From: Chromatiaceae bacterium
Lineage (GTDB): Bacteria > Pseudomonadota > Gammaproteobacteria > Chromatiales > Chromatiaceae
Direction of reading: 5' to 3'
Assembly: GCA_026984455.1 (NCBI GenBank)
Contig: JALSSC010000064.1
Location: 39,363-103,362 of the forward strand
DNA length: 64,000 nucleotides
In this document: in pieces, positions 1-3,960 of the stretch
Position numbering within the stretch: the stretch's first letter is position 1
How the letters are laid out: each line of letters starts with the position of its first letter
Program-made: the position numbers and the translations under genes
The notes under the pieces: generated by a model
Databases searched by the model: none
What the model saw: the letters and a program-made list of their open reading frames with translations, nothing else
Told to the model about the DNA's origin: nothing

Positions 1-1688
1 CGCACCTTCCTCCACAATGCCTCGTTGTTGTTCTCGAACACCGCCCACTGGGTGCCCTTGTCGATGGAGTGCTCCAGGTAAGCGAAGTATCTCCGCACGC
101 TGATGTATTTCCATTCCGGATCGGAGCTGATGGTGCGCGCCCCCCAAAGCCGATGACCGCGGCCCTCGAAAAAGCGGAAGCAGTTGATTCCCAGGGGGTT
201 GAGCACGTCTTGTTGGGCCTTGTTCAACACCGTCTCCAGGCCGATGACGCCAAGCGCGACTTCGTTGGCGGGGGCCTTGAACACCCCGTGCAAGACATCG
301 GTTCGGGCGTAGATGCCGGTGACGACACCGCTGGGGGGGACGTCGATCTCACGCCGGCCGTTGGGATCCAGGGGATCGAGGATGCGCAACCAAGGATAGT
401 AGAGGGCGGCGTGGGTGGAATCGAAGCGACCACGGAAGTCCTGAACCTCGGACAGGGCCAGGCCGTTGGGCGCATCGAGTACCGCCACGCGGTAGCGCAT
501 TCGGACCTCGCAGTGAGTGATCAGGCTCTGTACGATCTGTTGTGCGCGACTCTCGTGGGACAGGTAGTCATGCGAGAATCCCGGGGCCGCAACGATGGAG
601 ATCTCGTCCACGTCTTCGAAGGTCTTGAGGCCAGTCTTCTCCTGTCCGCCGTCGTCTCCTTCGTAAGCGGTGGCGGTGGGCAGCAGACCGTCACCGCCGT
701 CGTTTCCGCCGTGGAACCGGTCCAGGGTGTAGGTCACCTCCATCTCGCTCGGTGAAGGGCGGACCGCGGCCGGCGAGGCGTTCCGCAGGTCCTCGTCGCT
801 GGACAGGCTGCGCGGCAGGACGTCGTCGACGAAGGCCTGGCCGAGCAGGTCCCGTAACAGGTCACGGGCCGAGGTGTGAGAGGTCTCGATGGCGAACGGG
901 ACGGTCAGATAGTCCTGGCGCCCAGGCGGGTTCCGTGTAAAGGTCGCCACCAAGCCGGCGGGGTGCCGTGGGCAAGGCGACAGGTCGGGCCAGATCAGCT
1001 CGTTTTCGAACCGGCCGGGACGTTTGACTCGCACGCTGAGGGTGATGCGATAGACCCGCTGGTTCGAGGCGTTCAGGTCGTCGAAGCCGAGGGGCGGGCC
1101 GGTACCGTCGTCGAGCACCAAATCGTCGCCCTGGCGTGCCACATCGTACAGCCCCTCCAGGCTCGGCGAGGTCGCCCCGGCGTCCCGCACATAGACCACG
1201 TCGTGTTCCCGCACACCGCTCACCCGGGTCTCGGACAATAGATTGGGCGAGGTCCGCACCCCGAATACCACACGCTGTTCGCCGCAGTGGCCGGGAAAGC
1301 GGGCACGCAGTACGATGCCGGCCGGCGACCCCTGTAGGGGCAGAGTCAGGTTGGCCTTGCCCGTGTCCGGATCGGGGCTGTCGGCGGCAAAATCCGTGGC
1401 CTGATAGACTCGGGTAACATAGAGCTTGGTGCCGCCATTGTCGAAAAAGGCCCGTACCCCGTGGGCGAGGTAGTTCTCTACCGGTGCACCCTTGAACTCC
1501 AACGGGTCGAGTCCGCCATAGATACGTTCGAAGTCCGCGAACCCGGTGAGCAGTTCCGGCGGCCCCTCGGTGGGTCCGTAGCGGGTCGGTCCGATGAAGC
1601 CTGCGACGCTGGTGCTCAGCCCCTCGATGGTCTTGGGACGGAAACTCACCTCTTCGACATAGACGCCGGGGGCGAGATACTCGGCCAT
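1..1688 (-). CDS. contractile tail sheath protein (phage/eCIS type); C-terminus runs off the window
   Basis: Not in the ORF track because it is open at the window edge. I translated the minus strand by hand from the ATG at 1688, with GAGGAGG 8 nt upstream. Product: MAEYLAPGVYVEEVSFRPKTIEG...GLKTFEDVDEISIVAAPG...ALYYPWLRILDP...VPPSGVVTGIYARTDVLHGVFKAPANE...GINCFRFFEGRGHRLWGARTISSDPEWKYISVRR. These are hallmark motifs of Phage_sheath_1/1C family proteins. Confidence 0.9.
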   Translation of the reverse strand, partial: MAEYLAPGVYVEEVSFRPKTIEGLSTSVAGFIGPTRYGPTEGPPELLTGFADFERIYGGLDPLEFKGAPVENYLAHGVRAFFDNGGTKLYVTRVYQATDFAADSPDPDTGKANLTLPLQGSPAGIVLRARFPGHCGEQRVVFGVRTSPNLLSETRVSGVREHDVVYVRDAGATSPSLEGLYDVARQGDDLVLDDGTGPPLGFDDLNASNQRVYRITLSVRVKRPGRFENELIWPDLSPCPRHPAGLVATFTRNPPGRQDYLTVPFAIETSHTSARDLLRDLLGQAFVDDVLPRSLSSDEDLRNASPAAVRPSPSEMEVTYTLDRFHGGNDGGDGLLPTATAYEGDDGGQEKTGLKTFEDVDEISIVAAPGFSHDYLSHESRAQQIVQSLITHCEVRMRYRVAVLDAPNGLALSEVQDFRGRFDSTHAALYYPWLRILDPLDPNGRREIDVPPSGVVTGIYARTDVLHGVFKAPANEVALGVIGLETVLNKAQQDVLNPLGINCFRFFEGRGHRLWGARTISSDPEWKYISVRRYFAYLEHSIDKGTQWAVFENNNEALWRKV

Positions 1689-1704
1689 GTTGCTAACCTC
1701 CTCG

Positions 1705-1761
1705 ACTGTTTAGCGTCTGAGCGAAGACCTCGTCTTCGTTGAGACACGATCCGGGGCAGGG
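1705..1761 (-). repeat. conserved ~55-nt hairpin leader motif, copy 1 (directly 5' of the sheath RBS)
   Basis: Minus-sense sequence is CCCTGCCCCGGATCGTGTCTCAACGAAGACGAGGTCTTCGCTCAGACGCTAAACAGT. It matches 24662-24716 (plus) at about 49 of 55 positions with one 2-nt indel. The core hairpin is GAAGAC-GAG-GTCTTC with extended arms. Confidence 0.55.
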
Positions 1762-1779
1762 AGGCCCCGGCTTTTTTCT
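1751..1779 (+). terminator. intrinsic-terminator-like hairpin oriented on the plus strand, inside a minus-strand operon
   Basis: CCGGGGC-agggag-GCCCCGG is followed by CTTTTTTCT on the plus strand. The minus-sense reading has an A-run before the stem and no U-run after it. Confidence 0.35.
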
Positions 1780-1915
1780 ACCGCGACAAGCGGTTGAAAA
1801 ATGGGTGGAAGGGCTAGACCGCTTCTTCCCCTTCCGGCGGCAGAAAACCCAGAAACGGGGGGTTTCCGCCAAGAACTGGTTATTCGGCGCATACCGTGGT
1901 TGCGATGAAATCCGG

Positions 1916-2791
1916 TCAGGGTGAGCCTGGAGCCGGTGCGATTCGCAGGCTCGACGCACCGCGGTCCTGCAGCACGAGGGCCTCGCCCAAGACCAATTCT
2001 GCGTTCAGCTCGGTCCGTGGCGGGTTCCCATAGGTGAACCACGCCGGCCCCTGGCACAGGATGCTGCGCAGATCGGGGGTTGGCCCGGCCTGCGGGAAGC
2101 GCAACGACGCCGGCCGATAGCGGACCCGAATCACCAGCGGCCAGCGCGACACCGCGGGCGGCGGCGATGCGTCCGTACCCGCCGGTGCGACAAAGGACGG
2201 ATAGGGAAACAACACCGCGGTACAACCGCGTCGGTCTGCCAGACCGAAATAGGTACGTCCCCCAGGGGCCGCGATCTCCAATACTGCAAAGGCGGCAGGG
2301 GCGGAGCCGATGGTCTCGGCCTGCTCCACTTGGGTCTCCAGTTGAGTGCGCACGATGGCCATGGACGACGGCGCCTCCCGGGTGGGGGCGGAAAACAGAT
2401 AGAAACCCGGGGGTCGCAGGGATGGGGAGGCGCACGGCAGGTTGCTCGGATATACGCCCGTCAAGGGTAAGTCTTCCTCGAAGGCCAGGGGGAGAAAACG
2501 GCCCCTAGGGTCGCTCACCCGTACCACGAAGCGTCGCTGGACCGGAGGACTTGACGGCACCTGGTGCGGGTATTCCACCCTCGTAAGGCCCGGCAAGTGG
2601 TGGAAGGCATATACTCCAGAGGCGGTCGGTTGGGCGCGGGTGCCCTGTGCGGTACTGTGTTCCGGATAGGCGACCACCTCCAGATGGTCGCTTACCTGAC
2701 TTTCCAGGGCCGGATCCCAAAAGCGGATGCCGAACGGGGTGACAATGGACACCCGCTCGCTCGCTCCGCTTTGGCGCGACTCAGGAGTCAT
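1916..2791 (-). CDS. hypothetical protein, eCIS-locus associated (291 aa)
   Basis: Internal start of track ORF 1916..3076. The ATG at 2791 overlaps the DUF4255 stop (ATGA) and has GGAGG upstream. Product MTPESRQSGASERVSIVTPFGIRFWDPALESQ... looks beta-rich and repetitive. I recognise no family. Confidence 0.6.
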   Translation of the reverse strand: MTPESRQSGASERVSIVTPFGIRFWDPALESQVSDHLEVVAYPEHSTAQGTRAQPTASGVYAFHHLPGLTRVEYPHQVPSSPPVQRRFVVRVSDPRGRFLPLAFEEDLPLTGVYPSNLPCASPSLRPPGFYLFSAPTREAPSSMAIVRTQLETQVEQAETIGSAPAAFAVLEIAAPGGRTYFGLADRRGCTAVLFPYPSFVAPAGTDASPPPAVSRWPLVIRVRYRPASLRFPQAGPTPDLRSILCQGPAWFTYGNPPRTELNAELVLGEALVLQDRGASSLRIAPAPGSP

Positions 2792-3384: not shown

Positions 3385-3563
3385 GGCCGGAGTCCTTGGG
3401 GTGAGCTTTCTGCATAACCGAATTCGCCCCGATGCTGTAGTTACCGGTCAGCGCGGTGGTGTACGAACTCCACCTCGTTGCACGATCCGAGACTGTGCAG
3501 CCATCCCTCTCTGTGATCGGCAGGGTAGAGTGAAGCGATGCCCATCACCGTGCGGGTTACCTA

Positions 3564-3579
3564 AGCAATAACATCGCCA
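3564..3579 (-). promoter_or_regulatory. sigma-54 (-24/-12) promoter candidate for the eCIS-like operon
   Basis: Minus-sense TGGCGATGTTATTGCT has GG-N10-GC spacing identical to the consensus TGGCACG-N4-TTGCW. It lies about 180 nt upstream of the DUF4255 start and downstream of a sigma-54 activator gene. Confidence 0.6.
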
Positions 3580-3598
3580 ACTCCCAGCGCATCTCTCG

Positions 3599-3611
3599 CA
3601 ACCCATTGATT
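3599..3611 (-). promoter_or_regulatory. IHF-like core site upstream of the sigma-54 promoter
   Basis: Minus-sense AATCAATGGGTTG fits WATCAANNNNTTR. It sits 20-33 nt upstream of the -24 element, the usual position for DNA bending at bEBP-dependent promoters. Confidence 0.35.
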
Positions 3612-3941
3612 GGATGTGATAACTGGCGATTCTCACGGCTCGGGGGTGGTGTTTTCGAGCCCCGAGTGTAACGGGGTGTTGTGACAGCAACGACCGAGAT
3701 CTCTCCTCGAGCGGGCAGATGATCGCTACTGTTTGGAACGACAGGGATGTTACGCGGCAGCGGCGTATGGGCGCGTATCTCCGATTGAGGACAGATCCAT
3801 CGGGAGTGGACTTGCCCGGCTTCACTGGTCCCAAAGACAGAATATCCTATAGGAAGACTCCTTAAGGAATGAGTGGAGCAGGATGGCGAACAGGGGCTGG
3901 ATGTCCCAGTCTCCGGGGGGGCGGTCCAGTGGGCGGGAGGC

Positions 3942-3960
3942 TGTAACAGTCCCTGTTACA
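3942..3960. promoter_or_regulatory. perfect palindrome TGTAACAG-TCC-CTGTTACA (candidate activator binding site / UAS)
   Basis: 8+8 bp perfect inverted repeat, about 370 bp upstream of the -24 element and about 90 bp downstream of the activator gene stop. No U-run follows on either strand. Related half-sites occur at 3667-3672 (TGTAAC), 3680-3687 (TGTGACAG) and 3962-3974 (CTGTCACTGTCCC). Confidence 0.4.

Follow-up and report, generated by a model that had tools for sequence, protein, structure and literature searches.

Loci for an extracellular contractile injection system (eCIS) are defined by eight core families, in the survey that also gives their lineage II and the dbeCIS database (Chen et al. 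2019, PMC6899500). Lysis of the producing cell is a described release route, and the regulators associated with these loci are GerE, which adjoins 25.8% of them, BTAD and RfaH (Geller et al. 2021, PMC8213781). How eCIS gene clusters are regulated and what induces them remains unclear, according to a 2023 review (PMC10598620). The locus considered here begins in a 64,000-nt stretch of a Chromatiaceae bacterium (GCA_026984455.1, contig JALSSC010000064.1, positions 39,363 to 103,362), hereafter the window. Its first three genes run off the left edge on the minus strand, and directly upstream of them lies the gene of a sigma-54 enhancer-binding protein (bEBP).

The eCIS operon is probably read from a sigma-54 promoter at 3564-3579, which the product of the adjacent bEBP gene would open via conserved upstream sites; we put the probability of this reading at roughly 0.8. 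It rests on gene content, motifs, synteny, motif enrichment and spacing, and from these we infer DNA binding by the activator, use of integration host factor (IHF) and sigma-54 dependence in vivo. A first-pass annotation of the window had proposed the start of an eCIS-type locus under sigma-54/IHF/palindrome control by the adjacent activator. Its -24/-12 element, IHF core, palindrome and TGTNAC half-sites were all recovered in place, the next gene upstream is indeed that of a sigma-54 activator, and the proposed control is now supported by recurrent synteny, enrichment of -24/-12 elements and a family motif with phased spacing.

The activator combines a degenerate receiver, an AAA+ domain with a GAFTGA motif and a Fis-type helix-turn-helix (HTH). 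Pfam assigns Sigma54_activat (5e-63), AAA_lid_14 and HTH_8; Response_reg scores 22 bits, under its cutoff of 30, and no NCBIfam equivalog cutoff is reached (322 bits for NtrC, against a cutoff of 559). A metagenome scan with the protein found 80 relatives at 37-62% identity. In an alignment of 18 members the GAFTGA and Walker motifs are conserved and the HTH is very conserved (NWNKSKAA..LHWSRMTLYRKM). At the position of D54 in NtrC, located with an approximate NtrC reference sequence, the window protein has Y and none of the 18 aligned members has D. No histidine kinase gene adjoins the bEBP gene, which lies between folD on its upstream side and the eCIS operon. The loss of the phospho-acceptor Asp suggests that control is probably exerted not by a histidine kinase but by another input. 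In all, 22 relatives are at least 43% identical and have 2.5 kb or more of sequence downstream; about 10 of them precede contractile injection system (CIS) genes, as judged by tblastn with all proteins of the locus. Three CIS layouts follow them: DUF4255, a 291-aa protein and sheath; a divergent sheath with tube; and a WHD+AAA ATPase followed by eCIS_core.

Inverted repeats found just after the bEBP genes yield a family motif, TGTNACA-N4-6-TGTNACA. In the 700 nt downstream of the bEBP stop codon the exact motif occurs 34 times, in 25 of 77 regions, and with at most one mismatch 62 times, in 39 regions; the corresponding values are 0.005 and 0.27 in shuffled sequence, and 2 and 8 in the other 648 kb of the same loci. 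Pairs of TGTNACA are thus enriched ~200-fold just downstream of bEBP genes. In 19 of 37 loci (binomial p ~2e-21), 94 to 110.5 nt separate the centre of the proximal site from the GG of the best -24/-12 match. These distances fall into two groups, 94-98.5 and 105-110.5, that lie about one helical turn apart, and further loci have values near 212 and 233. This fixed spacing ties together two motifs that were found independently, as activation from one face of the helix predicts. In the window the proximal site, TGTAACGGGGTGTTGTGACA (TGTCACAACACCCCGTTACA on the minus strand), is centred 98.5 nt upstream of the promoter GG, within the first spacing group of the family. The whole 64 kb holds exactly two TGTNACA pairs with at most one mismatch (0.13 expected), both in the 663-nt intergenic region between the bEBP and DUF4255 genes.

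Between these two sites and the promoter sits AATCAATGGGTTG, the sole match in the window to the IHF consensus WATCAANNNNTTR (0.2 expected). The -24/-12 element itself, TGGCGATGTTATTGCT, with GG-N10-GC spacing, is read as TGGCGATGTTATTGC(T) on the minus strand (3564/5-3579). The combination of motifs is exceptional, though the -24/-12 match alone is not. Promoter scores were taken from an approximate sigma-54 matrix, which uses the published consensus with approximated frequencies. By that matrix, the top-scoring forward -24/-12 match within 600 nt upstream of DUF4255 has a median of 12.2 bits in related loci with a bEBP (n=11) and 6.8 in those without (n=56; Mann-Whitney p 1.5e-4), and the forward strand outscores the reverse in loci with a bEBP (p 0.0024) but not in those without. 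One metagenomic locus of the same gene order (L091), with a bEBP 49% identical to that of the window, has the -24/-12 match TGGTATCGTTATTGCT, in which the context is conserved. Aligned relatives are AT-richer 16-45 nt upstream of the 5' end of the promoter.

The closest relative, a Joint Genome Institute metagenome contig (L168), offers a direct comparison. Its bEBP is 61% identical to that of the window and has an HD-domain protein as upstream neighbour, and its counterpart of the 291-aa protein is 64% identical. The regulatory DNA of the two is largely unalignable, and conservation was therefore judged by motif and position. Within this otherwise unalignable intergenic DNA, L168 retains a near-identical proximal site, TGTCACATCGCGAGGTTACA, at the same 98.5-nt spacing, an AT-rich tract with AATCAA twice at the IHF position, and the identical -24 context GGAGTTGGC; its TGGCAGACCACTTGCC lies 120 nt before the DUF4255 start.

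Recurrence of the arrangement was followed in 80 related loci, found by a scan with the sheath protein over one genome per GTDB species; they span Proteobacteria, Acidobacteriota, Chloroflexota, Verrucomicrobiota, Nitrospirota, Gemmatimonadota and others. All 80 share one gene order: DUF4255, 291-aa, sheath, tube, 960-aa, tube, CIS_tube, GPD, base_V, 513-aa. The first-pass annotation had called DUF4255 followed by sheath the usual opening of Afp/PVC/MAC-like eCIS loci, which applies to every one of these relatives but not to Afp, where afp16 stands near the 3' end, as the afp gene numbering indicates (PMC6899500). Upstream sequence sufficed for the comparison in 59 loci; in 10 of them DUF4255 is preceded, on the same strand and no more than 3 kb away, by a bEBP gene. 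The rest of these loci, 1.13 Mb in all, holds only two more bEBP matches, which makes bEBP genes 30 times denser in the upstream interval (p 1.6e-7). The ten loci come from at least seven phyla. Their activators show at least three architectures: receiver-like plus AAA plus HTH; short, with almost no N-terminal domain; and long, with an N-terminus of unknown type. This diversity suggests that sigma-54 control was recruited repeatedly in this eCIS clade.

A mechanism can be proposed along familiar lines. The sigma-54 promoter would remain closed until the activator acts. An activator oligomer would bind two sites of the form TGTNACA-N4-6-TGTNACA, one at 3667-3686 (about -110 to -130) and one at 3942-3960 (about -390 to -410), with distances counted from the predicted transcript start, and a DNA bend, probably made by IHF at 3599-3611 or intrinsic to the sequence, would loop it onto the sigma-54 holoenzyme. 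ATP hydrolysis by the AAA+ domain, with its GAFTGA loop, would then open the complex. Given the degenerate receiver and the lack of an adjacent kinase gene, the input is likely to be something other than phosphorylation. Sigma-54 promoters have essentially no basal activity. Such a promoter suits a costly machine that is probably released by lysis of its producer.

Table 1. Features at the front of the operon and in its control region (positions in the 64,000-nt window)
Feature	Position	Strand	Basis or remark
Tail-sheath gene, 5' part (562 codons)	1..1688	minus	Runs off left edge; translation and Pfam
Structured spacer, 227 nt, 291-aa gene to sheath gene	1689..1915	minus	RNA fold and repeat search
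291-aa open reading frame	1916..2791	minus	Clade-specific conserved protein
DUF4255/Pvc16_N, 198 aa, putative Afp16-type tube terminator/cap, first gene of the operon	2788..3384	minus	Pfam 1.1e-25
Predicted leader, 169 nt	3385..3553	minus	Transcript start ~3553 from promoter geometry, C3565 taken as -12
Candidate sigma-54 -24/-12 element	3564..3579	minus	Motif scan
IHF consensus	3599..3611	minus	About -46 to -58, between proximal site and promoter
Proximal activator site (predicted)	3667..3686		Family motif, 1 mismatch
Distal activator site (predicted), palindrome	3942..3960		Exact family motif
Sigma-54 enhancer-binding protein (bEBP), 439 aa	4048..5367	minus	Pfam, family alignment

The nature of the machine was judged from the genes beyond the left edge. 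Exact-protein look-ups extended the locus ~30 kb leftwards on JBPMNS010000090.1 (139,755 bp, assembly GCA_054025075.1), one of four public contigs that encode the 291-aa protein; the whole locus spans ~32 kb and ~23 called genes. In the window, Pfam finds Phage_sheath_1 (1.4e-18) and Phage_sheath_1C (4.7e-5) in the truncated sheath, and the complete protein has 635 aa (L001 11104-13011 on the recovered contig). Past it come a gp19-type tube gene, a 960-aa protein with a TIG domain, a second gp19-type tube gene, a CIS_tube protein of 354 aa and a 56-aa protein. These are followed by Phage_GPD (357 aa), Phage_base_V (232 aa), a 513-aa protein, GPW_gp25 (130 aa) and Baseplate_J/TIGR02243. A third group comprises a CIS12-like protein, two weakly CIS13-like proteins and proteins of 396, 623, 205, 256 (on the opposite strand) and 257 aa. 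The locus closes with an AAA ATPase of 710 aa, an eCIS_core (DUF4157) protein of 1241 aa and a TPR protein, after which a glycosyltransferase/methyltransferase gene follows.

Family scores back several of these assignments. Both tube proteins are Phage_T4_gp19 members that exceed the TIGR02241 cutoff of 62 bits (102 and 84 bits). Phage_GPD and Phage_base_V match the respective halves of NF033848 VgrG_rel, and the spike is thus a split VgrG. Baseplate_J is found at 1.3e-8, TIGR02243 at 273 bits against a cutoff of 156, and AAA in the ATPase at 1.1e-21. The 354-aa protein directly before the spike genes matches CIS_tube (2.2e-19) and has no LysM domain that could be found. Of the core families of Chen et al. 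2019, seven of eight are clearly present; for Afp7 there is only this CIS_tube-domain protein, in the place where Afp7 would be expected. A PAAR protein was not detected in the locus. The leftward search thus found the sheath, gp19-type tube, gp25, Baseplate_J and AAA ATPase sought there, and the tube, baseplate, spike, ATPase and payload that the first-pass annotation had placed outside the window do lie to its left, the DUF4157 protein being the putative payload. With the core families and eCIS_core present, and with capsid and terminase not found, the eCIS reading stands: by its gene content this is a contractile injection locus of the eCIS superfamily, of which window positions 1-3384 hold the first three genes.

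Gene content bears less directly on where the machine acts. The regulation could be as described while the system works inside the cell or anchored to a membrane, in which case the name 'eCIS' would not fit the way it acts; this is possible, though less likely than not. The classification is one of gene content, several clade-specific proteins have no assigned role, and a lysis cassette was not recognised among the genes scanned. Characterised relatives in lineage II include systems that are not released, and those of Streptomyces and Anabaena reportedly act intracellularly or from a membrane anchor. Nothing in the sequence speaks against such a mode of action; the candidate fibre proteins of CIS13-like type and the DUF4157 protein are, for their part, typical of released eCIS.

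The two sites upstream of the promoter do not have equal claims. The distal one is a perfect palindrome, TGTAACAGTCCCTGTTACA (TGTAACAG-N3-CTGTTACA), which the first-pass annotation emphasised, with the half-sites nearer the promoter as related elements. Both fit the family motif, but it is the proximal pair that holds the family-typical, conserved position, and the palindrome is best read as a distal second site. The palindrome might instead end transcription of the bEBP gene or serve some unrelated regulator, so that only the proximal site matters. It lies 88 nt past the stop codon of the bEBP gene; from the promoter it is ~380 nt away on the upstream side, beyond the distance typical of the family, and it could form an 8-bp hairpin. 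This alternative is nonetheless unlikely: the palindrome matches the family motif exactly, the exact motif occurs nowhere else in the 64 kb, and three relatives (L095, L111 and L090) also have a second site, farther from the promoter and soon after the bEBP stop codon. As an intrinsic terminator it was ruled out, since a T-run is absent after the palindrome and a terminator scan did not flag it.

A more radical alternative holds that the adjacency is incidental: the activator serves other genes, the -24/-12 match is due to chance, and the operon uses another promoter. Several observations weigh on that side or otherwise against the main reading. The window contains the pattern TGGC-N7-TTGC 4 times where 2.6 are expected, and the site scores 10.3 bits, rank 23 of 128,000 positions by the approximate matrix, with GA at -22/-21 where the consensus has AC. 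The full IHF consensus is not conserved in L168. In this eCIS clade 83% of the loci have no adjacent bEBP, and several relatives of the activator adjoin polysaccharide-export or other genes and not CIS genes, so the family is often, not always, linked to CIS. The structured 227-nt spacer, finally, could decouple the sheath and later genes from the sigma-54 promoter. Even so, incidental adjacency is very improbable. It does not account for bEBP genes being 30 times denser directly upstream of DUF4255, for the higher promoter scores in loci that have them, for a motif enriched ~200-fold at a fixed and helically phased spacing, or for the persistence of that spacing in L168; moreover, no sigma-70-like promoter was found on the minus strand in 1600-5700.

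A prophage tail module, an R-type tailocin or a type VI secretion system (T6SS) can be dismissed on gene content, in line with the first-pass annotation, because although sheath, tube, gp25, Baseplate_J and VgrG-like proteins are common to all contractile systems, the ~23 called genes of the 32-kb locus include no capsid, portal, terminase or T6SS membrane-complex families, DUF4255, Baseplate_J, the AAA+ ATPase and eCIS_core mark eCIS loci, folD/coaX/birA flank the locus at one end and a glycosyltransferase gene at the other, and the sheath is a single protein whereas that of a T6SS is a TssB/TssC pair.

The front of the operon is only partly compact. The DUF4255 gene has a GTG start and an AAGGA ribosome-binding site, and it overlaps the 291-aa gene by 4 nt (ATGA at 2788-2791). 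The three genes had been described as translationally coupled; this is borne out for the first two and not for the sheath gene, which lies 227 nt away. The spacer between them has a predicted fold of -89.8 kcal/mol (z -3.4), far better than shuffled sequence, and contains, at ~1700-1770, a 65-nt two-hairpin repeat of which an inverted second copy, 86% identical, lies at 24645-24725. L168 has a gap of only 30 nt at this position. The spacer looks like an inserted element of the REP/MITE type (repetitive extragenic palindrome or miniature inverted-repeat transposable element) inside the operon, and it might modulate expression of the sheath gene. No second sigma-54-like site was found within it, and a scan of 1600-5700 against Rfam at a permissive threshold found no RNA family in leader or spacer.

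The 291-aa protein matches no family in Pfam or NCBIfam, and its 131 homologues are each unnamed and devoid of a Pfam domain. By tblastn it is present in 74 of the 80 relatives, that is, wherever the contig covers that part of the locus. Kept in order across related loci, it is evidently a conserved component of this eCIS clade. An AlphaFold model built from 64 homologues (pLDDT 89.7, pTM 0.85) predicts tandem beta-sandwich domains. A Foldseek comparison of the model with the PDB returned generic immunoglobulin/transthyretin-like matches, none of them a CIS component, and a sequence profile found no match in the PDB. Two larger proteins of the locus also have features of their own. The clade-conserved 960-aa protein between the two tube genes (L001 13503-16385) has a weak C-terminal match to Phage_sheath_1 (3e-4) and may be a second, decorated sheath-like subunit. 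The 623-aa protein that follows the CIS13-like genes (P0052, L087 10001-11872) has homologues, P0068 and P0070-P0072, that are fused to an outer-membrane beta-barrel (PF13505), an unusual fusion for a CIS-linked protein; a scan of viral contigs with it gave no match.

In the related loci the slot just before DUF4255 is variable. It is occupied by five unrelated families of small proteins (for example at L028 8218-8451, L012 7982-8395, L083 8309-8539, L091 3706-3921, L070 8099-8461). Family A, of ~80 aa ('HSFIVKLWLE..HITHVPSGERRY'), is found in 22 loci that lack a bEBP, a winged-helix-like family of 134 aa in 8 Pyrinomonadaceae loci and a receiver-like family in 7 loci. The other two, 'HP.AADT..GI..WWL' and 'NYF.VGHNAFEF.LDFG', are all but confined to loci that have a bEBP or a sigma-54-like promoter. 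To judge from these gene neighbourhoods, the regulatory front end of this eCIS clade seems modular. The promoter lies 179 nt from the DUF4255 start in the window, against ~290-340 nt in most relatives with an adjacent bEBP; the longer distance is found in relatives with a small-protein gene between promoter and DUF4255, and the genes concerned belong to two families specific to bEBP loci. No small-protein gene is present in the window leader, and its absence is probably why the distance there is shorter.

Other sigma-54-like sites and members of the activator family were met along the way. A Rubrivivax metagenome-assembled genome (L046) has a near-perfect site, TGGCACGAAGCCTGCA (16.7 bits), ~280 nt upstream of DUF4255, and no bEBP gene within ~8.5 kb upstream or 13 kb downstream of DUF4255; another locus (L052) has a weaker site, a 'WWL' small protein and no bEBP. 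The activator of both is presumably encoded elsewhere. In two loci (L100 4744-9325, L101 8721-11507), members of the bEBP family with TGTNACA pairs after their genes precede NusG/RfaH-like, GerE-type and polysaccharide-export genes in place of CIS genes. NusG/RfaH-like and GerE types are already linked to eCIS, and a regulatory cascade is therefore conceivable. The strongest sigma-54-like site of the window, TGGCACGTTACCTGCT at 31932-31947 on the plus strand (16.5 bits by the approximate matrix), stands at the start of a Gcw_chp/porin-like open reading frame (31931-32719, plus) and may be another sigma-54 promoter of this genome. Elsewhere in the window, a cobalamin riboswitch (24954-25133, plus, 74 bits) and a tRNA gene (30650-30723, minus) pass the Rfam gathering threshold.

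Whether the arrangement reaches further is an even bet: sigma-54 gating could be a widespread form of CIS control, in which one phylum-spanning activator family, with its degenerate receiver, conserved HTH and phased TGTNACA site, is the master on-switch for at least three layouts, other bEBP types have been recruited independently, and the receiver-like domain senses the trigger of eCIS production. Full-text literature searches yielded no paper that connects eCIS or tailocins with sigma-54, RpoN or enhancer-binding proteins; the matches concern T6SS. The first-pass annotation had held such control to be undescribed for eCIS, which is right as far as the papers searched go; the co-occurrence of sigma-54 activators with eCIS is already in published data, but we came across no discussion or analysis of it. 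In Geller et al. 2021 the regulators named in the main text are GerE, BTAD and RfaH alone, while a supplementary table places Sigma54_activat among the 'shell' domains, with weak enrichment (49 genes; odds ratio 1.59; q 0.04; 4 phyla), and their locus table has the Leptothrix cholodnii series Lcho_3032 (bEBP), Lcho_3033 (small gene) and Lcho_3034 (afp16). The bEBPs of L. cholodnii and of a second cultured relative, Ramlibacter cellulosilyticus USB13 (L037), are of the short form, and a search for TGTNACA sites found none for either. What appears to be new is the activator family, together with its site and the phased spacing.

A dedicated activator, a defined site and a tightly closed promoter make the question of eCIS induction testable, and the activator is a handle that could be of use in getting silent eCIS loci expressed, whether for study or for engineering. 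The helically phased spacing of site and promoter, seen across phyla, also offers a clean set of natural data for the study of enhancer geometry. To a specialist the result is useful rather than astonishing, the mechanism of bEBP, IHF and sigma-54 being textbook and having a precedent in T6SS.

That precedent is VasH-type control, for example in Vibrio cholerae (PMC3439928), where a bEBP is likewise encoded in or next to the locus of a contractile machine and sigma-54 promoters drive structural genes. The likeness is one of layout; the machine here is an eCIS, and its activator has a receiver-like N-terminal domain and a TGTNACA-pair site. As in enhancers of the NtrC/NifA type, a site ~100 nt upstream, an IHF consensus at about -50 and a GG-N10-GC promoter go with a GAFTGA AAA+ domain and a Fis-type HTH. 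Unlike NtrC, the receiver of the window protein has no phospho-acceptor Asp, no histidine kinase gene is adjacent, and the site is a pair of 7-bp TGTNACA units. Its TGT...ACA flavour recalls the NifA site TGT-N10-ACA and TyrR boxes, which we take as a lead only.

Among described eCIS the locus most resembles lineage II (dbeCIS, Chen et al. 2019, PMC6899500; eCIStem, Geller et al. 2021, PMC8213781), with seven of eight core families plus DUF4157, clade-specific genes of no known domain and no recognisable tape measure. It differs from described eCIS in that its VgrG is split over two genes, no PAAR protein was detected in it, and a bEBP stands in place of GerE, BTAD or RfaH. With the GerE/LuxR-type, BTAD and RfaH/AnfA1 regulators of eCIS and with PrtN/PrtR of R-pyocins it shares the principle that a dedicated regulator encoded next to the locus gates a costly machine; the sigma factor and the mechanism by which the window locus would apply that principle are different.

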